From NCBI RefSeq assembly GCF_963921235.1, contig NC_086097.1, forward strand, positions 46,378,001 to 46,442,000: a stretch of DNA of 64,000 bases, in the 5' to 3' direction. The notes beneath the pieces are model-generated. The model saw only the letters and a list, made by a program, of their open reading frames with translations. It ran no database searches and was not told the origin of the DNA. The stretch's first letter is position 1. Each line of letters opens with the position of its first letter. The stretch comes from Mobula hypostoma. Taxonomy: Eukaryota. The position numbers and the translations under genes were made by a program. Positions 22,546 to 62,835 of the stretch are shown in pieces.

Positions 22546-22580
22546 AGTCCTGATGAAGGTCTCAGCCTGAAATATCGACT
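22546..22580 (+). ncRNA. Minimal type I hammerhead ribozyme in a short Penelope-like tail fragment (fragment runs to ~22660)
   Basis: AGTC-CTGATGA-aggtctcagcct-GAAA-TA-TC-GACT; downstream atagatgctgcctggcctgctgagttcctccagc matches the Penelope tails. Confidence 0.75.
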
Positions 22581-22859
22581 ATACTCTTTTCCATAGATGC
22601 TGCCTGGCCTGCTGAGTTCCTCCAGCATTTTGTGCGTGTTGCTTGGTTTTCCAACATCTATTCTCTTTGCTTTTTCACTCAATCATGCTGTATTGCAAAA
22701 AAATGCCTACTAACACAATCTTATCGATTTGTATAGAAACTGAGATTGACCAGAAATCCTTCAGTAATTGTATTTTTCCGTGTCTCCTTCGTTGAATCAC
22801 AGAATCCAGGGAGAGTTTGCATCACACTCGTGGATGTGGATTCACAACGGAATAAAAAT

Positions 22860-28203: not shown

Positions 28204-28840
28204 GACACAATTAGGTGGTGGTGTTACTTACAGAAAATAAAACATTTTGCAGAACCTGAACAGTCACTTGGACAAACAAAGACCAGTGAAAGGATTTCAG
28301 ATTGGAATATTAAGGGAAAACATGTTTGACTGACTTGATTCTGTTCTTTTTTATGAGGCAATATTAAAATTAGTTAAGGAATCTTGTGGGAATGGTATCT
28401 TTATTAGGCTTCATGTTATAAGTATATTATTACAGAATACAAGTGGAAGTGAAAGGATATCGTGTATATGACTTCAAGCAAGGGGCAGAAACCAGAGGGC
28501 TGCAGAAAATGGCTTATTTTTGGACTGGAGTTCCCTGTCTTCAAGGATCACTACTGATTCTGATGGACATTAATGACTTATATATTGGGTGTAGGGGACA
28601 ATCTTGAAACTTGCAGATGATAGGAAACTCGGAAGAAATGCAAATTCTGTGAAAGTAGGAGAAGATATCAAAGTGCCAATGGACTATGAGAGGGGGATGT
28701 GGGAGCAGTGGGAAATTATAAGTTGTTTATTCTCAATGTGAAAATGTTACATTTGGTTTGAAAGGATGAGGAGAAACAATATAAGCTAAGTGAATCAAAT
28801 TAATAGTGATCCAGAAAGAGAAAGATGGTGGTTGTAGACT

Positions 28841-29360
28841 GTAAGACATAGGAGCAGAATTAGGCCATTTGGCCTATTGAGTCTGCTTCGTTATTCCATC
28901 ATGGCTGATTTATTATCCTTCTCAACTCCATTCTCCTGCTTTCTCCCTGTAACCTTTGATAGCCTGGCTAATCAGGAATCTATCACTCCCGCTTTAAATA
29001 TATCCATTGACTTGGTCCTCACTGTGGTCTGTGGCAATGAATTCCACAGAATCACTACCTTCTGGCTAAAGAAATGCCTCCTTATCTGGGTTCTAAATGG
29101 ATGTCCCTCTATTCTGAGGCTGTGCCCTCTGGTCCTAGACTCCTCCACCAAAAGGAAACATCCTCTCCACGTCCACTCAATCTTGACCTTTCAATAATTG
29201 ATGGGTTTCAATGAGATCCCCCCTCATTCTTCTAAGCTGCAGGACCAGAGATATCAAACACTCCTCATATATTAATCCTTTTATTCTTGGAACCATTCTC
29301 ATGAACCTTCTCTGGACCCTCTCCAATACCAGCACATCTTTTCTTAAATAAAGGGGACAC
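28841..29360 (-). mobile_element. CR1 3' fragment
   Basis: YLRKDVLVLERVQRRFMRMVP..RRMRGDLIET and CR1 tail. Confidence 0.85.
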
Positions 29361-29656
29361 ATAACGAATGAACCCAGGACCCATTCTCACAGCACTAGCT
29401 ATGTACTAATAGACAAAGAAAGAGAAAAAAAAACCTTACTAGAAATTTACTTAGAGCCTCTGCTTATTTTTGGCCAAGCCTTTTCTCACCTAAGCTCATT
29501 GAGCGAAAGTCTGGCCACTCTTAACACTGTTTACTTCAACCAACCCTGTGAATGTGGAAGGACAAGTTAAAAAGAAAGCAACTAATAAGACACGCAACAT
29601 ACATCAAAGTTGCTGGTGAACGCAGCAGGCCAAGCAGCATCTATAGGAAGAGGTGC

Positions 29657-29692
29657 AGTCGACGTTTCAGGCCGAGACCCTTCGTTAGGACT
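29657..29692 (-). ncRNA. Hammerhead ribozyme copy with core mutation (CUGA to CUAA)
   Basis: AGTC-CTAACGA-agggtctcggcct-GAAA-CG-TC-GACT. Confidence 0.75.
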
Positions 29693-31132
29693 AACTGAAG
29701 GAAGAGTGAGTAAGGGATTTGAAAGTGGGAGGGGGAGGGGGAGATCCAAAATGATAGGAGAAGACAGGAGGGGGAGGGATAGAGCCAAGAGCTGGACAGG
29801 TGATAGGCAAAAGGGGATACGAGAGGATCATGGGACAGGAGGCCCAGGGAGAAAGACAAGGGGGGAGGGGAACCCAGAGGATGGGCAAGGGGTATATTCA
29901 GAGGGACAGAGGGAGAAAAAGGCGAGTGAGAGAAAGAATGTGTGCATAAAAATGAGTAACAGATGGGGTACGAGGGGGAGGTGGGGCATTAGCGGAAGTT
30001 AGAGAAGTCAATGTTCATGCCATCAGGTTGGAGGCTACCCAGACGGAATATAAGGTGTTGTTCCTCCAACCTGAGTGTGGTTTCATCTTTACAGTAGAGG
30101 AGGCCGTGGATAGACATGTCAGAATGGGAATGGGATGTGGAATTAAAATGTGTGGCCACTGGGAGATCCTGCTTTCTCTGGCGGACAGAGCGTAGATGTT
30201 CAGCAAAGCGGTCTCCCAGTCTGCGTCGGGTCTCACCAATATATAAAAGGCCACATCGGGAGCACCGGACGCAGTATATCACCCCAGTCGACTCACAGGT
30301 GAAGTGATGCCTCACCTGGAAGGACTGTTTGGGGCCCTGAATGGTGGTAAGGGAGCAAGTGTAAGGGCATGTGTAGCACTTGTTCCGCTTACATGGATAA
30401 GTGCCAGGAGGGAGATCAGTGGGGAGGGATGGGGGGGACGAATGAACAAGGGAGTTGTGTAGGGAGCGATCCCTGCAGAATGCAGAGAGAGGGGGGGAGG
30501 GAAAGATGTGCTTAGTGGTGGGATCCCGTTGGAGGTGGCGGAAGTTACGGAGAATAATATGTTGGACCCGGAGGCTGGTGGGGTGGTAGGTGAGGACCAG
30601 GGGAACCCTATTCCTAGTGGGGTGGTGGGAGGATGGAGTGAGAGCAGATGTACATGAAATGGGGGAGATGCGTTTAAGAGCAGAGTTGATAGTGGAGGAA
30701 GGGAAGCCCCTTTCTTTAAAAAATGAAGACATCTCCCTCGTCCTACACTCAGGTTGGAGGAACAACACCATATATTCCGTCTGGGTAGCCTCCAACCTGA
30801 TGGCATGAACATTGACTTCTCTAACTTTCGCTAAGGCCCCACCTCCCCTTCGTACCCCATCTGTTACTCATTTTTATGCACACATTCTTTCCCTCACTCT
30901 CCTTTTTCTCCCTCTGTCCCTCTTAATATACCTCTTGCCCATCCTCTGGGTCACCCCCCCCGTCTTTCTTCCCGGACCTCCTATCCCATGATCCTCTCGT
31001 ATCCCCTTTTGCCTATCACCTGTCCAGCTCTCGGCTCTATCCCTCCCCCTCCTGTTTTCTCCTATCATTTTGCATCTCCCCCTCCCCCTCCCCCTCCAGC
31101 ATTCAAATCCCTTACTCACTCTTCCTTCAGTT

Positions 31133-31168
31133 AGTCCTGACGAAGGGTCTCGGCCTGAAACGTCGACT
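31133..31168 (+). ncRNA. Minimal type I hammerhead ribozyme, intact core
   Basis: AGTC-CTGACGA-AGGgtctcggCCT-GAAA-CG-TC|GACT; stem I AGTC/GACT, stem II AGG/CCT, palindromic ACGT stem III; predicted cut after 31164. Confidence 0.88.
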
Positions 31169-33361
31169 GCACCTCTTCCTATAGATGCTGCTTGGCCTGC
31201 TGCGTTCACCAGCAACTTTGATGTATGTTGCTTGAATTTCCAGCATCTGCAGAATTCCTGTTGTTTGCGAACTAATAAGACACCATGTATTCTGCTTTTT
31301 ATAAATTGATTGTTAAAGCCAAGAAGTGATTCTAGCTGAGTAAAACTTTAGTTTTCCCTAGCTGGAGTACTGTATATAATTTCAGGCAAAACTTGAGACC
31401 TGAGAACACGTAAGAGATTTACAAAGAAGTTCTAAGGTTGAGAGATCCTGGCTGCATGGATAGTTTGTAGGAATTGGGATTGTAGGGTGTGATTGGAACA
31501 GAGAATGTTGAAATGACATTTGATAGAGATGCTTAAATCATTAAAATTATAGATAGTGTAAAAAAAAGATAAACTATCTACAGTTGCAGGAGGATCAGCC
31601 ATGCATTTAAAGTGATTGGCAAACAATCCTCAGGTGACATGATAAAATATTTTACTTAACGTGGTTAGGATTTTGAAGTCACTGCCTAAACTAATAATGG
31701 AAAACGACTTTGTATAGTTTCCAAATGCATTAAGAACTGCTCTTCGAAAGGGCTGAATGGCCTCTATCCATCTGTTGAAGAGAAACTTTGGCATAGTAAT
31801 GAATTTGGAACATGTTGTGCTGCTGTTACACAGGAAGATTGGAGATATGACCTGTGATATAATTCCAAGAGGCCACATCCTTCCAGCCTCTTTCCCTAGT
31901 TCAAGGCTATTATATGAATTAAACTGGATATCCTGAATGACATCACAGCTTCTATTCAAATAACTGACTCGCACACGGTCAAAGATGCAACCCAAGACTG
32001 AATGAATGAATTTATGCATAACTAAGAAGAAAGAGGAGCAAAGAGGTAAGTAACACACAATAAATTAGACAGAGAATTCACTAGTTCTATTATTAAATTA
32101 TTTTTAAAGTCAACAGTACTTTATTCATCCAATTAAGTGGATGCTAGTAAAAATTTTGATTTTGCAACAACTCATTTTCAAACTGAATTCAAGCTACTTG
32201 ATTCTTATTTCAGAACGTGTTTCAGCTTATAGTTTGCAACAACTCAACTTGATATATAGAAGATTTAGAATCAGTGAATATTAATTATTGAATGAGGTAA
32301 TTCAAAGCAATCAGTTATTTCCACTCATTTTACCTAACTCCCCCTCCCCCATTTCTGTATCCAGTTTTATTTTGATGGTTGCTATTAATTCCACTGTCAT
32401 CATAAATTGTTGCTTTCTCTTCTGCTGCAGCTACTAATTGATCTGATATTGAGTTTAAAAAGCTGATATTGCCAATCTGCCTAATGCAGTTCTGGTGGAA
32501 GTTCTGCTCCAGAAGACCATGTAATATATTTTGTGGAAGTTTACCTTTCAGAAATTGTTAATGAGCATTTCTCAACATGCTTAAATCTGTTAAATGGGAT
32601 TAAATGACGTCTGAAGTTCTGAAAATTGTGGGATTTTAGAGCCTAAATTATTTATTTGCTCAACTTTAATGCTATTGGTTAAGTGCATCTCCTGCACACC
32701 TCAGCTGTAATTAACATAATTGAGCAGATGGTTACCCATTCAGCAGCTGAGCAGATTGCCTACTCTAACATGATAATGACAATCATATCAATCATGGACC
32801 AATCACTGGAAACAAAACTATATTTCTTGCTTTATTTTGAATATAATGTGATCTTAATTATTCCTCCTTTTAAAAGAGTCTCTTTTCAGATTATAGTGCT
32901 ACATTTCAAAATAAGGAGAAAAATATCTTCATTTAGTGCTAAAGGCCAGTTCAGATACATTTTGTTTGAGATGTGCTTAACCAAATGTCATTTAAGATAT
33001 AAGACTTCAGTGGTATGAATCCAATGGTCAAACTGAAATACTATTTGTCAGCAGACAGATAATATGTACATTGCTATTTGTTTCCCAAAGATCACCAGTT
33101 TGAGCCTTGGTGTATCATGTCTATTGTATGCAAAGGTTTAAAAACAATTTCATGGGAATTAAATGATGCTGTTAATGTGAGGTAATTATTTTAAAATGAC
33201 TTTTAATCCCTTATCCCAGCTCTAGCATTTAATGAGATCTCATCTGATATTTTACTTAGGGTCATTTATATGCACAAACTATCCCTTGGTTCCCTGATAT
33301 CCAGAAATCTGATTATCTTGGTCTTTAATATATTCAGTGACTGAGCTTCACAGCCTTCTTG

Positions 33362-34632
33362 AAAAGAGAATGCCAAAGACTGACAATGCAATTGTTTCTG
33401 TCTTGTCCCACCTGGAAAATGGGGTCTCATATGTCAGGCTGCTGTTTACAGACTTCACTTCAGCATTTAACACTATCATGCCCCAGAAACTGGTGGGAAA
33501 ATTGTCCCTACTGGGCCTCAACACCTCCCACTGCAACTAGATCCTGAACTTCTTAACAGAAGGGCCATAGTCAGTCTGTGTGGGCAGCAACGTCTCCAGT
33601 CCCATCATTACACCGAGTGCTCAGCCTGCTACTGTTCACACGGCTGAGGCATGACTGGGTCGCAGGATTCAACTCAAATCGCGCCATCAAGTTTGCAGAT
33701 GACACAACAGTGATTGGCCTCATCATCAACGATGATTCAGAGTACAGAGAGGAAATGGAGCAGCTGGTGGACTGGTGTGAGAAGAACAATCTAAGTCTGA
33801 ATGTGGCGAAGACCAAGGAAATCATTGTGGACTTCAGGAAAGTGCAGATGAACCATCCCCTTCTACGAATACATGGCTCCTCCATAGCGAGAGTTAAGTG
33901 CACCAAGTTCCTGGGAGTTCACATTATGGATGACCTCATCTTCCTGAATAAGAAGGCATGGCAGCATCTCCACTTCCTAAGGAGATTGAGGAAAATGAGG
34001 CTTGCACCCCCATATTAACTACAATTTATAGGAGTGCCATTGACAGCATCCTGACAAGTTACATCTCCATCTGGTAAGACAGCAGCCAAGCATCGGACCA
34101 GAAGTCCCTGCAAAGGACTGTGAGAATGGTTGAGAGGTTCATAGGAGTCTCCCTACTATCCATCGGGGACATTTATCAGGAGTGCTGTGTATGGAGGGGA
34201 CTTAGTATTATCAGGGATCCCACCCATCCATCCAACATCCTCTTTGACTTTCTACCATCAGGCAAGAGACTCCGATGCATAAAAACAAGAACGGTCAGGA
34301 TGGGAAACAGCTTCTTCCCTCGGGCCGCTAGGATTCTGAACTCCCTGCCGCATCGTGTGTTGCTTGAATTTCTAGCATCTGCAGATTTCCTCGTGTCTGC
34401 ATTCAAAGCGCCATTGGTTAATCTGTTCTGTACCTTACAACATATAAATTATGCACTTTAGTTAGTTTATTTATGCTTAGTTCATCTGTAGATTTTATCC
34501 TTATTTTTATGTTATTGTGCGTTATATATGTTATGTATACTACAGCACTTTTCACCCTGGTTTGGAGAAATGTTGTCTTGCTTGATGGTATACGTGTATA
34601 TAGTTAAATGACAATAAACTTACCTTGACTTA
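33362..34632 (+). mobile_element. Decayed Rex1/Babar-like LINE
   Basis: [65 protein letters not shown]; tail gacaataaacttaccttgact. Confidence 0.88.
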
Positions 34633-49004: not shown

Positions 49005-49175
49005 AACACGCAAATAATGCTGGAGGAACTCAACAGATCCGGGCAGCATCTGTAGAAAGGAATAAAAAGTGAACCTCACTGGCTGAGACCCTTCATTAGG
49101 ACTGGAGAGGAAGGGGGAAGAAGCTAGAATAAGAAGGTGGAAGGAGGGGAGGAAACACAAGCTGGCAAGTGATGG
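49005..49175 (-). mobile_element. Old Penelope-like tail with degenerate hammerhead
   Basis: tgctggaggaactca..gcagcatctg..ggctgagacccttcattaggact; GAAA box lost. Confidence 0.65.
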
Positions 49176-51920: not shown

Positions 51921-53120
51921 AAGACCATAACACAAAGGAGCAGAAGTCGGCCATTCAGCCCATTGAGTCTGCTCTGCCATTTTATCATGAGCTGATCCAT
52001 TCTCCCATTTAGTCCCACTCCCCTGCCTTCTCACCATAACCTTTGATGCCCTGGCTACTTAGATACCTATCAATCTCTGCCTTAAATACATCCAATGACT
52101 TAGCCTCCACTGCCACCCGTGGCAACAAATTCCATAGATTCATCACCCTCTTCCAAAAAAAATTTCTTCGCATCTCTGTTCTGAATGGGTGCCCTTCAAT
52201 CCTTAAGTCATGCCCTCTCGTACTAGACTCCCCCATCATGGGAAACAACTTTGTCACATCCACTCTGTCCATTCCTTTCAACATTCAAAATGTTTCTATG
52301 AGGTCTCCCCTCATTCTTCTAAACTCCAAGGAACACAGTCCAAGAGCGGACAAACGTTCCTCATATGTTAACCCTCTCATTCCCAGAATCATTCTAGTGA
52401 ATCTTCTCTGTACCCTCTCCAACGTCAGCACATCCTTTCTTAAATAAGGAGACCAAAACTGCCCACAGTACTCCAAGTGAGGTCTCACCAGCGCCTTATA
52501 GAGCCTCAACATCACATCCCTGCTCCTATACTCTATTCCTCTAGAAATGAATGCCAACATTGCATTCGCCTTCTTCACCACCGACTCAACCTGCAGGTTA
52601 ACCTTAAGGGTATCCTGTACAAGGACTCCCAAGTCCCATTGCATCTCAGAACTTTGAATTCTCTCCCCATTTAAATAATAGTCTGCCTGTTTATTTCTTC
52701 TGTCAAAGTGCATAACCATACACTTTCAAACATTGTATTTCATTTGACACTTCTTTGCCCATTCTTACAATCTATCCAAGTCTCTCTGCAGACTCTCTGT
52801 TTCCTCAGCACTAGCGGCCCCTCCACCTATCTTCGTATCGTCAGCAAACTTAGCCACAAAGCCATCTATTCCATAATCCAAATTGTTGATGTACAATGTA
52901 AAAAGAAGCGGCCCCAACACAGACCCCTGTGGAACACCACTGGTAACTGGCAGCCAACCAGAATAGGATCCCTTTATTCTCACTCTCTGTTTCCTGCTAA
53001 TCAGCCAACGCTCTATCCACGTAAACAACAGGAATTCTGCGGATGCTGGAAATTCAAGCAACACACACAAAAGTTGCTGGTGAATGCAGCAGGCCAGGCA
53101 ACATCTATAGGAAGAGGTGC

Positions 53121-53156
53121 AGTCGACGTTTCAGACCGAGACCCTTCGTCAGGACT
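53121..53156 (-). ncRNA. Minimal type I hammerhead ribozyme, intact core
   Basis: AGTC-CTGACGA-AGGgtctcggTCT-GAAA-CG-TC-GACT (G-U pair in stem II). Confidence 0.85.
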
Positions 53157-54462
53157 AACTGAAGGAAGAGTGAGTAAGGGATTTGAAAGTTGGAGGGGGA
53201 GGGGGAGATCCAAAATGATAGGAGAAGACAGGAGGGGGAGGGATGGAGCCAAGAGCTGGACAGGTGATAGGCAAAAGGGATATGAGAGGATCATGGGACA
53301 GGAGGTCCGGGAAGAAAGACAAGGAGGTGGGGGGGGGGACGCAGAGGATGGGCAAGAGGTATATTCAGAGGGACAGAGGGAGAAAAAGGAGAGTGAGAGA
53401 AAGAATGTGTGTATAAAAATAAGTAACAGACGGGGTACGAGGGGGAGGTGGGGCATTAGCGGAAGTTAGAGAAGTCGATGTTCATGCCATCAGGTTGGAG
53501 GCTACCCAGACGGAATATAAGGTGTTGTTCCTCCAACCTGAGTGTGGCTTCATCTTTATAGTAGAGGAGGCCGTGGATAGACATGTCAGAATGGGAATGG
53601 GATGTGGAATTAAAATGTGTGGCCACTGGGAGATCCTGCTTTCTCTGGCGGACAGAGCATAGATGTTCAGCAAAGCGGTCTCCCAGTCTGCGTCGGGTCT
53701 CGCCAATATATAAAAGGCCACATCGGGAGCACCGGACGCAGTATATCACCCCAGTCGACTCACAGGTGAAGTGTTGCCTCACCTGGAAGGACTGTTTGGG
53801 GCCCTGAATGGTGGTAAGGGAGGAAGTGTAAGGGCATGTATAGCACTTGTTCCGCTTACACGGATAAGTGTCAGGAGGGAGATCAGTGGGGAGGGATGGG
53901 GAGGACGAATGGACAAGGGAGTTGCGTGGGATCGATCCCTGCGGAATGCAGAGAGAGGGGGGGAGGGAAAGATGTGCTTAGTGGTGGGATCCCGTTGGAG
54001 GTGGCGGAAGTTACGGAGAATAATATGTTGGACCCAGAGGCTGGTGGGGTGGTAGGTGAGGACCAGGGGAACCCTATTCCTAGTGGGGTGGCGGGAGGAT
54101 GGAGTGAGAGCAGATGTACGTGAAATGAGGGAGATGCGTTTAAGAGCAGAGTTGATAGTGGAGGAAGGGAAGCCCCTTTCTTTAAAAAAGGAAGACATCT
54201 CCCTCGTTCTAGAATGAAAAGCCTCATCCTGAGAGCAGATGTGGCGGAGACGGAGGAATTGTGAGAAGGGGATGGCGTTTTTGCAAGAGACAGGGTGAGA
54301 AGAGGAATAGTCCAGATAGCTGTGAGAGTCAGTAGGCTTATAGTAGACATCAGTGGATAAGCTGTCTCCAGAGACAGAGACAGAAAGATCTAGAAAGGGG
54401 AGGGAGGTGTCGGAAATGGACCAGGTAAACTTGAGGGCAGGGTGAAAGTTGGAGGCAAAAAA

Positions 54463-56381
54463 AACTGCCGATGGGACATCAATCATCTCGACTTCACTGC
54501 ACCTTGTCCCCATTCCAGCCTCACTCCTTCGGAACACTCTGCTCTCCACTCCCTCCGCTCTAATCCTAACCTTATTATTAAACCCGCCGATAAGGGGGGT
54601 GCTGTTGTAGTCTGGCGTACTGACCTCTACCTTGCCGAGGCACAGCGACAACTCGCGGATACCTCCTCTTATTTACCCCTCGATCGTGACCCCACTAAGG
54701 AGCACCAGGCCATTGTCTCTCACACCATCACCGACTTTATCCGCTCAGGGGATCTCCCATCCACTGCTACCAACCTTATAGTTCCCACACCTCGCACTTC
54801 CCGTTTCTACCTCCTACCCAAGATCCACAAACCTGCCTGTCCTGGCCGACCTATTGTCTCCGCTTGCTCCTGCCCCACCGAACTCGTTTCTGCATACCTC
54901 GACACGGTTTTATCCCCCCTTGTTCAATCCCTTCCGACCTATGTTCGTGACACATCTTACGCTCTTAAACTTTTCGATGATTTTAAGTTCCCTGGCCCCC
55001 ACTGCTTTATCTTCACCATGGATGTCCAGTCCCTATATACTTCCATCCCCCATCAGGAAGGTCTCAAAGCTCTACGCTTCTTTTTGGATTCCAGACCTAA
55101 TCAGTTCCCCTCTACCACCACTCTGCTCCGTCTAGCGGAATTAGACCTTACTCTTAATAATTTCTCCTTTGGCTCCTCCCACTTCCTCCAAACTAAAGGT
55201 GTAGCTATGGGCACCCGTATGGGTCCTAGCTATGCCTGCCTTTTTGTTGGCATTGTGGAACAATCTATGTTCCGTGCCTATTCTGGTATCTGTCCCCCAC
55301 TTTTCCTTCGCTACATTGACGACTGCATTGGCGCTGCTTCCTGCACGCCTGCAGAACTCGTTGACTTTATTAACTTTGCCTCCAACTTCCACCCTGCTCT
55401 CAAGTTTACCTGGTCCATTTCCGACACCTCCCTCCCCTTTCTAGATCTTTCTGTCTCTGTCTCTGGAGACAGCTTATCCACTGATGTCTACTATAAGCCT
55501 ACTGACTCTCACAGCTATCTAGACTATTCCTCTTCTCACCCTGTCTCTTGCAAAAACGCCATCCCCTTCTCGCAATTCCTCCATCTCCACCGCATCTGCT
55601 CTCAGGATGAGGCTTTTCATTCTAGAACGAGGGCGATGTCTTCCTTTTTTAAAGAAAGGGGCTTCCCTTCCTCCACTATCAACTCTGCTTTTAAACGCAT
55701 CTCCCCCATTTCACATACATCTGCTCTCACTCCATCCTCCCGCCACCCCACTAGGAATAGGGTTCCCCTGGTCCTCACCTACCACCCCACCAGCCTCCGG
55801 GTCCAACATATTATTCTCCGTAACTTCCGCCACCCCCAATGGGATCCCACCACTAAGCACATCTTTCCCTCCCCCCTCTCTCTGCATTCCACAGGGATCG
55901 CTCCCTACGCATCTCCCTTGTCCATTCATTCGTCCCCCCATCCCTCCCCACTGATCTCCCTCCTGACATTTATCCGTGTAAGCGGAACAAGTGCTATACA
56001 TGCCCTTACACTTCCTCCCTTACCACCATTCAGGGCCCCAAACAGTCCTTCCAGGTGAGGCAACACTTCACCTGTGAGTCGATTGGGGTGATATACTGCG
56101 TCCGGTGCTCCTGATGTGGCCTTTTATATATTGGCGAGACCCGACGCAGACTGGGAGACCGCTTTGCTGAACATCTGTGCTCTGTCCGCCAGAGAAAGCA
56201 GGATCTCCCAGTGGCCACACATTTTAATTCCACATCCCATTCCCAGTCTGACATGTCTATCCATGGCCCCCTCCACTGTAAAGACGAAGTCACACTCAGG
56301 TTGGAGGAACAACACCTTATATTCCGTCTGGGTAGCCTCCAACCTGATGGCATGAACATCGACTTCTCTAACTTCCGCTAA
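54463..56381 (+). pseudogene. Penelope/Neptune-type reverse transcriptase-GIY-YIG ORF, 5'-truncated, frameshifted near 55870, stop near 56113
   Basis: IKPADKGGAVVV, FYLLPKIHK, PGRPIVS, MDVQSLYTSIPH, GVAMGTRMGPSYACLF, LRYIDD, FLDL, VYYKPT; ends ..DFSNFR*. Confidence 0.92.
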
Positions 56382-56677
56382 TGCCCCACCCCCCCGTACC
56401 CCATCTGTTACTTATTTTTATACACACATTCTTTCTCTCACTCTCCTTTTTCTCCCTCTGTCCCTCTGAATATACCCCTTGCCCATCCTCTGCGTCCCCC
56501 CCCCCACCTCCTTGTCTTTCTTCCCGGACCTCCTGTCCCATGATCCTCTCATATCCCTTTTGCCTATCACCTGTCCAGCTCTTGGCTCCATCCCTCCCCC
56601 TCCTGTCTTCTCCTATCATTTTGGATCTCCCCCTCCCCCTCCAACTTTCAAATCCCTTACTCACTCTTCCTTCAGTT

Positions 56678-56713
56678 AGTCCTGACGAAGGGTCTCGGCC
56701 TGAAACGTTGACT
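56678..56713 (+). ncRNA. Minimal type I hammerhead ribozyme, GUU cleavage triplet
   Basis: AGTC-CTGACGA-AGGgtctcggCCT-GAAA-CG-TT-GACT. Confidence 0.82.
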
Positions 56714-59145
56714 GCACCTCTTCCTAGAGATGCTGCCTGGCCTGTTGCGTTCACCAGCAACTTTTGCGTGTGTTGCTCTATCCACATATGTAACTTTCCC
56801 GTAATTCCATGGGCTCTTATCTTGTTAAGTAGCCTCATGTGTGGCACCTTGGCAAAGGCCTTCTGAAAATCCAAATATACAACATCCACTGCATCTCCCT
56901 TGTCTAGCCTACTTGTAATTTCCTCAAAAAATTGTAATAGGTTTGTCAGGCAGGATTTTCCTTTAAGGAATCCATGCTGAGTTCTGCCTATCTTGTCATA
57001 TGCCTCCAGGTACTCTGTAACCTCATCCTTGACAATTGACTCCAACAACTTCCCAACCACCGATGTCAAGCTAACAGGTCTATAATTTCCTTTTTGCCTC
57101 CTTGCCCCCTTCTTAAATAGCGGAGTGACATTTGAAATCTTCCAGTCCTCTGGAACCATGCCAGAATCTATCGACTTTTGAAAGATCATCACTAATGCCT
57201 CCACAATCTCCACAGCTACTTCCTTCAGAACACGAGGGTGCATTCCATCTGGTCCAGGAGATTTATCTACCTTTAGACTATTCAGCTTCCTGAGTACTTT
57301 CTCTGTTGTAATTGTGACTGCACACACTTCTCTTCCCTGCCACCCTTGAGTGTCCGGTATACTGCTGATGTCTTTCTCAGTGAAGACTGATGCAAAATAC
57401 TCACAGTTCCTCTGCCATCTCCTTATCTCCCATTACAATTACTCCAGCATCATTTTCTATTGGTCCTATATCTACTCTCACCTGTCTTTTACTCTTTATA
57501 TACCTGAAAAAGCTTTTAGTATCCTCTTCGATATTATTTGCTAGCTTCCTTTCATAGTTAATCTTTTCCCTCATAATGACCTTCTTAGTTTCCTTTTGTA
57601 AGCTTTTAGAAACTTCCCAATCCTCTGTCTTCCTACTAATTTTTGCTTCCTTGTATGCCCTCTCCTTTGCTTTAACTTTGGCTTTGACTTCTCTTGTCAG
57701 CCATGGTGGCATCCTTTTTCCCTTCGAAAATTTCTTCTTTTTTGGAATATATCTGTCTTGCACCTTCCTCACTTCTTGTATAAACTCCAGCCACTGCTGC
57801 TCTGTCATCCTTCCCGCCAGTATCCCTTTCCAGTTAACTTTGGCCAGTTCCTCTCTCATGCCACTATAATTTCCTTTACTCCACTGAAATACCGACACAT
57901 CAGATTTTGGCTTCTCTTTTTCAAATTTCACAGTGAACTCAGTCATGCTATGATCACTGCTTCCTAAGGGTTCCTTCACCTCAATCTCTCTAATCACCTC
58001 CGGTTCATTACACAATACCCAATCTAGTACAGCTGATCCCCTAGTGGGCTCAACAACAAGCTGTTCTAAAAAGCCATCTCGCAGACATTCTACAAATTCT
58101 CTCTCTTGAGATCCACTGCCGACCTGATTTTCCCAATCAACTCGCATGTTAAAATCCCCCACAATTATCATAACACTGCCCTTCTGACAAGCCTTTTCTA
58201 TTTCCTCTTGTAATTTGTAGTCCACATCACTGCAGTTGTTTGGAGGCCTATAAATAACTGCCATCAGGGTCCTTTTACCCCTGCGATTTCTTAGCTCAAC
58301 CCATAAAGATTCTGCACCTTCCTATCCTATATCGCCTCTTTCTAATGATCTAATATCATTTCTTACCAATAAATCCACGCCTCCTCCTCCCCCCGCCTAC
58401 CTTCCTATCCTTCCGATACACCGTGTATCCTTGGACGTTCAGCTCCCAGAGACATGCATCCTTCAGCCACATCTCAGTGATGGCCACAATATCATACCTG
58501 CCAATCTGTAGCTGTACGACAAGATCATCCACCTTATTCCTTATGCTGCGTGCATTTAAGTATAACACCTTAAGACCAGTATTTGGTACTTTTCGCTCTG
58601 ATTTCACTGCAACTCATCCCAATGGCTACAAATTTGCCCCACCACCTGCCTGTCTTTCCTGACATCTTTACTGCTCACTATCTTAGATTTATTTCTGTTT
58701 TCCCCTTCTTCCGCTCTATCATTCCGGTTCCCATCCCCTTGCCAAATTAGTTTAAACCCTCCCTAACAGCTCTATTAAACCTTCCCGCCAGGATATTGGT
58801 CCCCTTCGGGTTCAGCTGTAACCTGTCCCTTTTGAACAGGTCAAATATTTGTTAATGCGGGAACAAGCACTTTAAAAATGAGATTATTGTAGGATTGGTA
58901 TTAATGGATGTGCAGACTGGGTGAGCCTAAGGCCCCATTCCTGTGATGTCTCTCTCTAATTCTCTGGCTAAGAAATTTTACAGGAGATTTTCAGTAACAC
59001 CCACTGTTTCTGGAGAGGAATAAGAAGATTCAGTAGTGTGGCTTTTCAAACAGTGTTGTCAAAATATATCACTTTAGAGCTTTATCCATCAATTTTAGGG
59101 AGATAGGCAAAGAAGTTTTCACACTGAAAAAATGACCCAGGTGTA

Positions 59146-59219
59146 AATGTCCACTGTACCTCTTCCTAGAGATGCTGCCTGGCCTGCTGCGTTCACCAGC
59201 AACTTCGATGTGTGTTGTT
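59146..59219 (+). mobile_element. 74-bp Penelope tail micro-insertion
   Basis: Matches ~31159-31232; flanked by AGGTGTA at 59139-59145 and 59220-59226. Confidence 0.75.
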
Positions 59220-59526
59220 AGGTGTATTCTTGTATCATTGCAGTCAATTTCTTGCTTATCCTTCAATGAAAAGAATGGCTCAAACGCAGAAGAGGTGGAC
59301 ATTTACGGGAGTCTTGGAGGACACCTTCACCTCTAAGTTCTAAAACATTATTCTAAACATCAATTGGTTTGGGCCCTTGTCTGTTTCCCACTACATGTCA
59401 GGAAAACCCAAGAAATTGCTAAAGAATTTTAATAAATGAAAACAGAATTTGAATATAAACCTTTGTGTGTTCAGCTACTGCACAGAGGCATTTTCTACTA
59501 AATGTGATCAATGGTTAGAAGAAGTC

Positions 59527-62500
59527 ATAGTTAGAATAGTACAGCACATTAGAGGCCCTTCGGCCCACAATGTTGTGCCGACCCTCAAACACTGCCTCCC
59601 ATATAACCCCCCCACCTTAAATTCCGCCATATACCTGTCTAGTAGTCTCTTAAACTTCACTAGTGTATCTGCCTCCACCACTGACTCAGACAGTGCATTC
59701 CACGCACCAACCACTCTCTGAGTAAAAAAACCCTCCTCTGATATCCCCCTTGAACTTCCCACCCCTTATCTTAAAGCCATGTCCTCTTGTATTGAGCATT
59801 GGTGCCCTGGGGATGAGGCGCTGGCTATCCACTCTATCTATACCTCTTAATATCTTGTATACCTCTATCATGTCTCCTTTCATCCTCCTTTTCTCTAAAG
59901 AGTAAAGCCCTAGCTCCCTTAATCTCTGATCATAATCCATACTCTTTAAACCAGGCAGCATCCTGATAAATCTCCTCTGTACCCTTTCCAATGCTTCCAT
60001 ATCCTTCCTATAGTGAGGCGACCAGAACTGGACACAGTACTCCAAGTGTGGCCTAACCAGAGTTTTATAGAGCTGCATCATTACCTCGCAACTCTTAAAC
60101 GCTATCCCTCGACTTATGAAAGCTAACACCCTATAAGCTTTCTTAACTACCCTATCCACCTGTGAGGCAACTTTCAGGGACCTGTGGACATGTACCCCCA
60201 AATCCCTCTGCTCCTCCACACTGCCAAGTATCCTTCCATTTACTTTGTACTCTGCCTTGGAGTTTGTCCTTCCAAAGTGTACCACTTCACACTTCTCCGG
60301 GTTGAACTCCATCTGCCACTTCTCAGCCCACTTTTGCAACCTATCAATGTCTCTCTGCAATCTTTGATAATCCTCTACACTATCTACAACACCACCAACC
60401 TTTGTGTTGTCTGCAAACTTGCCAACCCACCTTTCTACCCCCATATCCAGGTCGTTAATAAAAATCACGAAAACTAGAGGTCCTAGAACCGATCCTTGTG
60501 GGACACCACTAGTCACAACCCTCCAATCCGAATGTACTCCCTCCACCACGTCCCTCTGCCTTCTGCAGGTAAGACAATTCTCAATCCACCTGGCCAAACT
60601 TCCCTGGATCCCATGCCTTCTGACTTTCTGAATAAGCCTACCATGTGGAACTTTGTCAAATGCCTTACTAAAATCTATATAGATCACATCCACTGCACTC
60701 CCCTCATCTATATGCCTGGTCACCTCCTCAAAAAACTCTATCAGGCTTGTTAGACACAATCCGCCCTTCACAAAGCCATGCTGACTGTCCCTGATCAGAC
60801 CATGATTCTCTATATGCCTATAGATCCTATCTCTAAGAATCTTTTCCAACAGCTTTCCCACCACAGACGTAAGGCTCACTGGTCTATAATTACCCGGATT
60901 ATCCTTGCTACCTTTTTTGAACAAGGGGACAACATTCGCCTCCCTCCAATCCTCCGGTACCATTCCCATAGACAACGAGGACATAAAGGTCCTAGCCAGA
61001 GGCTCAGCAATCTCTTTCCTTGCCTCATGGAGCAGCCTGGAGAATATTCCATCGGGCCCCGAGGACTTATCAGTTCTAATGTATTTTAATAACTCCAACA
61101 CCTCCTCTCCCTTAATATCAACATGCTCCAGAACATCAACCTCACTCATATTGTCCTCACTGTCATCAAGTACCCTCTCATTGGTGAATGCCAAAGAGAA
61201 GTATTCATTGAGGACCTCGCACACTTCCACAGCCTCCAGGCACATCTTCCCACCTTTATCTCTAATCGGTCCTACCTTCACTCCTGTCATCCTTTTTTTC
61301 TTCACATAATTGAAGAATGCCTTGGGGCTTTCCTTTACCCTACTCGCCAAGGCCTTCTCATGCCCCCTTCTTGCTCTTCTCAGACCCTTCTTAAGCTCCT
61401 TTCTCGCTACCCTATATTCCTCAATAGACCCATCTGATCCTTGCTTCCTAAACCTCATGTATGCTGCCTTCTTCCACCTGACTAGATTTTCCACCTCACT
61501 TGTCACCCATCGTTCCTTCACCCGACCATTCTTTATTTTCCTCACCAGGACAAATTTATCCCTAACATCCTGCAAGAGATCTCTAAACATCGACCACATG
61601 TCCATAGTACATTTCCCTACAAAAACATCATCCCAGTTCACACCTGCAAGCTCTAGCCTTATAGCCTCATAATTTGCCCTTCCCCAATTAAACATTTTCC
61701 TGTCCTCTCTGATTCTATCCTTTTCCATGATAATGCTGAAGGCCAGGGAGTGGTGGTCACTGTCCCCCAGATGCTCACCCACTGAGAGATCTGTGACCTG
61801 ACCCGGTTCTTTACCTAATACTAGATCTAGCATGGCATTTCCCCTAGTCGGCCTGTCAACATACTGTGACCAGAATCCATCCTGGTCACACTTAACAAAC
61901 TCTGCCCTGTCCAAACCCTTGGAACTAATCAGGTGCCAATCAATATCAGGGAAGTTAAAGTCACCCATGATAACAACCCTGTTATTTTTGCACCTTTCCA
62001 AAATCTGCCTCCCAATCTGCTCCTCGGTATCTCTGCTGCTACCAGGGGGCCTATAGTATACTCCCAATAGAGTAACTGCTCCCTTACTGTTATTGACTTC
62101 CACCCATACTGACTCAAAAGAGGATTCTGCTACATTACCCACCCTTTCTGTAGCTGTAATAGTATCCCTGACCAGTAATGCCACCCCTCCTCTCCTTTTT
62201 CCCCTCTCTCTATCCCTTTTAAAGCACTGAAATCCAGGAATATTGAGAATCCATTCCTGCCCTGGTGCCAGCCAAGTCTCTGTAATGGCCACTACATCAT
62301 AATTCCATGTATGTATCCAAGCTCTCAGTTCATCACCTTTGTTCCTCATGCTTCTTGCATTGAAGTACATGCACTTTAGCCCTTCTACCTTCCTACCTTT
62401 ACACACTTTATTCTGCTTCTCTTTCCTCAAAGCCTCTCTATATGTTAGATCTGGCTTTACTCCATGCACTTCTTTCACTGCTCTATCGCTCCAGGTCCAA

Positions 62501-62835
62501 TCCCCCTCGCAAATTAGTTTAAAATCCTCCTGAACCATGCTAGCAAACCTACCTGCAAGGATATTGCTCCCCCCTGAGTTCAGGTGCAACCCATCCAATC
62601 TGTACAGGTCCCACTTCCCCTGAAGAGATCCCAATGATCCAAAAATCTAAAACCCTGCCCCCTGCACCAACTCCTCAGCCATGCATTCAACTGCCATCTC
62701 CTCCAATTCTTAGCATCACAATCACGTAGGACTGGCAGCAATCCTAAGAACGCCACCCTTGAGGTCCTGTTCTTCAGCCTTCTGCCTAGTTCCCGAAACT
62801 CACACTTCAGGACCTCATCCCTCTTCCTGCCTATG
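59527..62835 (-). mobile_element. Young 5'-truncated CR1 LINE (SGNH-esterase ORF1 remnant and ORF2)
   Basis: ORF1 WQLNAWLRSWCRGQGFRFLDHWDLF..DGLHLN; ORF2 with endonuclease and RT. Confidence 0.95.
59686..62634 (-). pseudogene. 982-codon CR1 frame: esterase C-terminus, AP endonuclease and RT; catalytic FADD changed to FADN; frameshift near C-terminus
   Basis: NARS, AITETW, MGDFN, SDH, NYRPVSLTS, DFSKAFDKV, GVPQGSVLGP, FADNTK; native end FFTQRVVGAWNAL lies in another frame (59508-59762). Confidence 0.9.

Follow-up and report, generated by a model that had tools for sequence, protein, structure and literature searches.

A two-armed insertion in the genome of the ray Mobula hypostoma, here named insertion 1, consists of two arms of one Penelope-like element (PLE) family with the 3' ends facing outward inside one target-site duplication (TSD). 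The comparisons of the sequence confirmed this build and argue for a single event as the source of both arms. We regard it as likely that in this one event an endonuclease-bearing PLE of the Neptune/Nematis type would have primed reverse transcription at both overhangs of the target, using templates that probably differed from each other. Positions refer to the window, i.e., the whole stretch of 64,000 nucleotides that was analysed.

Structure of Insertion 1

The insert spans positions 29594-31269 (1,676 nt) and is flanked by identical 14-mers on the plus strand, at 29580-29593 and 31270-31283 (14 of 14 positions). This 14-mer occurs just twice in the window, and the bases flanking its two copies differ. 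When 3,000 random position pairs of equal spacing were compared with 10 nt of slack, a match of 14 was reached once, in a draw at 29600 which had hit the TSD of insertion 1 itself, and the next best matches were four draws of 10.

The long arm (29594-30745, minus strand, 1,152 nt) is a 5'-truncated PLE copy with its 3' end leftward; it stops at TGTTGC and has no tail. The short arm (30745-31269, plus strand, 525 nt) has its 3' end rightward and comprises the last approximately 28 codons of the open reading frame (ORF), the 3' region, a hammerhead-like motif and a tail of 38 nt (31232-31269, plus strand), which is confined to this arm in insertion 1 and is also present in one arm of insertion 2 (see below). 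Positions 29591-30078 and 31234-30745 are 93.7% identical over 494 aligned positions (BLAST), and the long arm is 95.7 and 94.1% identical to the two arms of insertion 2. The two 5'-truncation points meet head-to-head at position 30745, where the arms have one base (A) in common, with loose-end family consensus on either side. Nothing is inserted at this inner junction, the match is not longer than 1 nt, and there is neither a palindrome nor a TSD. The original prediction had described two outward 3' ends in one 14-bp TSD, arms joining at about 30745, a 38-nt tail on the shorter arm alone and a longer arm halting at the same hexamer, and all of this held: both arms reach the family 3' end and meet with an overlap of 1 nt. 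Judged by its sequence, insertion 1 is a dead copy, which has lost the reverse transcriptase (RT) through truncation.

From 4 of the 24 runs listed, all of which consist of contigs, sequences were aligned to positions 30080-33300, and 40 of the 298 variant rows were shown; summed depth was not treated as copy number. One contig (31246-33300) crosses the outer right junction, covering the flank and the adjoining 24 nt of the tail without a mismatch; the run in question possibly has the same source as the assembly and is not independent of it. The inner junction was absent from the contig pieces listed for the four runs, which make up a minority of all pieces and joints. Joints to the opposite strand near 30082-30748 represent ordinary family copies reading through and were not taken as evidence on the junction.

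Identity of the Element

The long arm encodes the C-terminal 250 codons and the stop codon of the PLE ORF (29989-30741, minus strand), covering the linker and the GIY-YIG endonuclease; the RT core is absent. The GIY-YIG domain of this copy reaches 20.4 bits in Pfam (E 6e-4), under the cut-off of 22.6, and that of insertion 2 reaches 24.7 bits, above it. In the frame of the long arm, which can be aligned to full-length relatives, a CxxC (two cysteines, CCHH type) lies inside the GIY-YIG core. The long arm of insertion 2 encodes RT (Pfam RVT_1, E 8.5e-6, below the cut-off) with a DKG motif. An RT of the PLE type upstream of the endonuclease in one ORF is hence found for the family, not for the copy in insertion 1. 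Among 8,000 scored candidates, 2,947 proteins matched the RT frame of insertion 2. The best match is named from Mobula hypostoma (91%), other top ones are from Chiloscyllium and Hypanus (Hypanus sabinus), and some of these relatives, 800-900 aa in size, bear both RT and GIY-YIG domains. Two ray gene models, 'chitinase domain-containing protein 1 isoform X1' (90%) and 'divergent protein kinase domain 1C isoform X2' (78%), match the PLE ORF over half of the query, which is either PLE sequence annotated as exons or exonisation.

In the published account of the RT-EN linker, a CX2-5CxxC motif is present in Neptune and Nematis and absent in Penelope/Poseidon (PMC8557442). The translation at 30367-30393 (minus strand) contains the motif CX4CXXC, which does not agree with the absence that defines Penelope/Poseidon and points to a family of the Neptune/Nematis type, these two clades being taken together here. 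The label 'Penelope' used in the original prediction is therefore appropriate for an endonuclease-bearing PLE with a GIY-YIG ORF, not for the Penelope/Poseidon clade. A bias towards microsatellite targets has been hypothesised for Neptune; neither of the two insertions described here (n = 2 only) lies in a microsatellite.

A candidate minimal type-I hammerhead-like motif was read by hand at 31132-31169 (plus strand) using the minimal hammerhead features outlined in PMC4209133. The core is intact and the predicted cut would fall after position 31164; the motif has an extra base before stem II, palindromic 15.2-16.2 and a G-U where G10.1-C11.1 is usual. Its counterpart in the long arm (29656-29693, minus strand) has a substitution in the conserved core and was missed by the motif scan that caught the other three arms. 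Taken over the four arms of insertions 1 and 2, the hammerhead-like core is intact in three and the G-U at 10.1-11.1 is found in all. A search of positions 29400-31400 against Rfam gave no matches at E<=5, the 160-nt 3' end folded no better than shuffles (z -1.0), and a co-fold of two copies gave no readable hammerhead. The two 3' end points are 67 and 105 nt downstream of the predicted cut. Older 3'-end fragments of related PLE families, 73-81% similar, are located at 22546-22659 and 49006-49103, and the former retains a decayed hammerhead-like core.

In all four organisms many contigs leave the reference at 30827, 31133 and 31169, shortly ahead of the ORF stop or near the hammerhead-like motif. 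These loose ends point to putative sister families which have the ORF end in common and differ in their 3' region. A 20-nt motif of the 3' end had no matches in genome_contigs or viral_contigs; its one match in metagenome_contigs was discarded as chance, since the resemblance to the window ended after 21 nt. Look-alike stretches were sought across other genomes and none was returned. The runs listed for the flank include no RNA data and have no bearing on expression.

Insertion 2 and Other Copies in the Window

Insertion 2 (53010-56785) is of the same family and build and lies inside a CR1-like RT frame. Its tail arm (53021-54459, minus strand) is 1,439 nt and its no-tail arm (approximately 54460-56776, plus strand), which carries the RT, approximately 2,317 nt in length. 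The direct repeat is 11 bp at most (53010-53020 and 56775-56785) and extends a few bases into the element ends, and the junction at about 54460 is a run of eight A, approximately three of them from the left arm. With the repeat counted once, the CR1 flanks join exactly when set against one paralogous CR1 copy of the window; against another, the join is accurate to 1 nt. The inverted arrangement with 5' truncation is thus seen in both long insertions of the window, and in each of them it is the shorter arm that bears the tail.

Between the arms of insertion 2 there are 10 differences over 485 sites of the 3' part. In the ORF part, 19 sites are private to one arm and 5 to the other (P 0.007; a three-way comparison with no outgroup), which hints at templates that may have been unequal.

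Some shorter copies were noted in the window as well. A one-armed mini-insertion of the same family at 59139-59226, approximately 74 nt long and with no tail, sits between 7-mer copies (59139-59145 and 59220-59226); its start does not coincide with the predicted hammerhead cut and lies approximately 6 nt upstream of that point. The 46-nt piece at 34355-34400, within older repeat sequence, is nearly the tail alone (87% to 31223-31268) and looks like a start at the tail site followed by a very early stop. An uninterrupted CR1-like frame of 986 codons with exonuclease/endonuclease/phosphatase and RT domains is located at 59686-62646 (minus strand).

Subfamily of the Arms

In the alignment of the four arms there are 41 variable ungapped columns. 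Of these, 30 set a single arm apart, 10 unite the two arms of each insertion, one pairs arms across insertions, and the third possible pattern is not seen. Ten of the 11 informative sites thus group the arms by insertion (P ~1e-4 against equal odds). Arms derived from different subfamilies had been named beforehand as a finding that would speak against the original prediction, and these sites show the opposite. Together with a single outer TSD and none inside, they argue for one event involving one subfamily, and not for two chance insertions.

Proposed Mechanism

The reasoning from TSD geometry rests on standard target-primed reverse transcription. An antisense copy right after the left TSD and a sense copy right before the right one suggest that two 3' overhangs would each have primed cDNA synthesis at the 3' end of the element. 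In the first step the GIY-YIG endonuclease would nick both strands 14 nt apart, giving two 3' overhangs, as the TSD geometry suggests. Each 3'-OH would then prime inward reverse transcription at one of two fixed internal starts 38 nt apart, so that one arm would be tailed and the other tailless. The cDNAs would stop early (at 1,152 and 525 nt), their growing ends may be joined over one shared base by end-joining repair, and fill-in would yield the TSD. The last step is the weakest: the templates would differ. They may be two separate RNAs belonging to one subfamily ('dual priming', for which a dimer could be responsible) or two units within a single tandem transcript.

For some of these steps there are in vitro results with another PLE. 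Its purified protein was shown to cut the two target strands and to extend each of them, and reverse transcription began at two internal positions on either side of the tail, both used on one RNA species (PMC11167929). The same article predicts a PLE dimer and states that later steps are unvalidated (PMC11167929). The element used was of the Poseidon clade, unlike the Neptune/Nematis-type family described here. That each nicked strand primed its own reverse transcription, as was originally proposed, is the best model in view of the geometry, the in vitro results and the common subfamily of the arms, and it is deduced from sequence.

One Template or Two

The question of templates depends on the age of insertion 1. 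In the runs of relative B, 68% of the flank's words are present. The match of its contig starts exactly at 31270, the first base of the right TSD copy, after 182 unmatched letters and has 32 substitutions in 2,027 nt (1.6%). The contig of relative C also starts to match exactly at 31270, after 164 unmatched letters. Both lengths fit the approximately 210 nt between the TSD and the older repeat on its left; this dispersed repeat (28836-29365) lies directly left of insertion 1 and has five further copies in the window at 72-76% identity. For relative D the nearest piece listed starts at 31286, short of the TSD. Judged from where the contig matches start, the letters before them being unseen, relatives B and C appear to be without insertion 1. 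Provided that the site in B is empty, insertion 1 must have arisen after the two haplotypes separated, and arms that were identical at birth would differ by no more than approximately 1.6%.

The arms of insertion 1 differ at 22 of 480 sites (4.6%), or at 20 by a second alignment, which is above this ceiling and suggests that the templates probably differed before insertion. Compared to the flank of B (32/2,027), the excess has a Fisher P of 0.0003; compared to the pooled A-C flank (57/1,478) there is no difference (P 0.50). On this basis we are inclined, with some reserve, to think that the two cDNAs were copied from templates already differing, be it a pair of RNAs or two units within a single tandem RNA. 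The excess fits these two sources equally and cannot separate them.

It is unlikely, in our opinion, that both overhangs were primed on the same stretch of one RNA, which was copied twice to give arms identical at insertion, and that these diverged afterwards, whether because GC-rich inverted DNA mutates faster or because another family copy acted as donor in gene conversion. Several observations are in line with such a course. The arms have 10 subfamily sites in common, including the minor allele at 31225 (21% of summed depth), and both start sites can be used on one RNA species in vitro (PMC11167929, as above). Of the three arm differences visible in the 40 variant rows shown, two occur almost exclusively in the short arm, which is what mutations after insertion would produce. 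The last 130 nt of the arms have a single difference (1/130 vs. 21/350, P 0.013), while insertion 2 shows 7/130 vs. 3/355 (P 0.005), the comparisons being post hoc and opposite in direction, for which reason the contrast was given no weight. In addition, the excess becomes less clear by stricter counting. With CpG dropped and a 1.3- or 1.5-fold higher rate allowed for GC-rich DNA, P is 0.02 or 0.07, and when two C-run blocks are dropped as well (13/450), it is 0.03 to 0.27, i.e., not significant under the strictest count. Against identical arms at insertion stand, first of all, the 4.6% divergence over a ceiling of 1.6% from the linked flank and the composition of the differences, as only 3 of the 20 substitutions are at CpG and 7 are transversions. 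The difference at 30835 is a common family variant (56% vs. 44% of summed depth), the TSD copies remain identical, and the 19 vs. 5 private sites in the ORF part of insertion 2 are unlike equal, clock-like decay.

Fold-back or self-priming, in which a single cDNA turns at a palindrome and copies itself, has been proposed for head-to-head PLE repeats of a rotifer on the basis of palindromes at the inverted junctions (PMC3846280, in its treatment of these repeats). For insertion 1 it seems very unlikely. The junction match is 1 nt, and local folding at the junctions of the two insertions is weak (-3.1 and -4.8 kcal/mol over 61 nt). Moreover, a copy of the long arm could not supply a tail that is absent there, and both insertions bear the tail on their shorter arm; fold-back also predicts arms identical at insertion.

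Two independent abutting insertions, or recombination of unrelated copies, are hardly credible. The family is indeed very abundant (133,480 contigs aligned from one run) and the arms are 4.6% apart, but a single TSD is found at the outer ends only, 10 of 11 sites pair the arms by insertion, and the same arrangement recurs in insertion 2 and in published PLEs. Least probable of all is an assembly artefact by which oppositely oriented copies became fused. Assemblies are troubled by PLE repeats (PMC8557442) and the inner junction is in none of the contig pieces listed, but the 14-bp TSD is exact, the contigs of relatives break off at its first base, the arms are not identical and insertion 2 has paralogous empty sites.

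Two-ended priming from two non-identical templates could also be a rule in this family, coordinated in such a way that the tail is on exactly one arm, the shorter. We hold this wider proposal as tentative and rather doubtful. With a single tandem transcript as template, a dimer would then start from its downstream unit at one overhang and from its truncated upstream unit at the other; one tandem RNA with two units predicts a tail on the shorter arm. The basis for the proposal is that two of two insertions have the tail on the shorter arm and that in one insertion the arms have diverged further than its apparent age would permit.

Significance

The structure of insertion 1 alone matters little, and its value is that of a test object. 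The origin of inverted and tandem PLE insertions has been called unresolved (PMC8557442). As the family is abundant and a close relative is available for dating, the template question and the rule of tail placement become countable genome-wide. If the two-template rule were true, dated insertions would be the genomic proof of 'dual priming', which has been postulated and not resolved for L1, and the origin of PLE inverted repeats would be explained. In the literature searched, with most subscription journals and supplements outside the search, no publication was found to show two templates for PLE inverted pairs. What is added here to the literature found is only the dating argument for non-identical templates, which depends on the presumed empty site and is suggestive.

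Comparison with Known Systems

The two-armed, one-tailed and TSD-bounded form is an already published and common PLE arrangement, and insertion 1 is an ordinary example of it. In PLEs, an inverted 5'-truncated copy may adjoin the 5' end, and a 30-40-bp tail is often at one end only (PMC8557442, scheme in the legend of Fig. 2). Inverted units within TSDs of 8-10 bp are described for Pen2a_Av and Pen2_Av of Adineta vaga (PMC3846280, description of these elements), and both the inverted copy and the one-end tail are listed in a curation guide (PMC8969392). The accessible part of 10.64898/2026.07.22.740005 contains nothing further on inverted pairs. The inverted pseudo-LTRs and short tails that were initially given as known for Penelope elements are thus documented in print (PMC8557442; PMC3846280; PMC8969392). 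The 38-nt tail on one arm fits the optional one-end tail of 30-40 nt without poly(A) of endonuclease-bearing PLEs.

Similarly to Pen2a_Av and Pen2_Av, insertion 1 has an inverted 5'-truncated copy at the 5' end, in head-to-head orientation, a one-end tail in the 30-40-nt range and a single TSD. It differs from them, as they are described in that account, in the length of the TSD (14 bp vs. 8-10 bp), in having neither a full ORF or direct pLTR between the arms nor a junction palindrome, and in its host, a ray. With PAc, a Poseidon element of Anolis carolinensis (PMC11167929), it has in common two 3' end points which bracket the tail downstream of a hammerhead or, here, hammerhead-like motif, an AT-rich target and both strands usable as primers. 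PAc belongs to the Penelope/Poseidon clade, however, and is without the linker motif present here. In its available parts, the PAc article does not explain inverted pairs, nor does it test one against two RNAs (PMC11167929).

Among the mechanisms described for L1, twin priming is alike in that both target strands prime and inverted segments lie inside one TSD (PMC2837659; 10.1101/2024.08.27.596794). There, the second primer is internal and one segment has the 3' end, whereas both arms of insertion 1 have it. The contrast with L1 twin priming drawn at the outset stands in this respect, while the statement that L1 segments do not overlap is not absolute, as an internal duplication is possible (10.1101/2024.08.27.596794). 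In L1 dual priming (PMC2837659, as postulated there), both nicks are primed at the RNA 3' end and the growing ends are joined with little or no microhomology inside one TSD. Insertion 1 likewise has both overhangs apparently primed at the start point at the RNA 3' end, inside one TSD. It differs from L1 in having no poly(A) and in start points that are internal and fixed. Dual priming was a postulate which its authors could not tell from twin priming, whereas the arms of insertion 1 are long enough to be compared. Of the named mechanisms, dual priming (PMC2837659, in the form given there) is probably the closest to the one proposed here.
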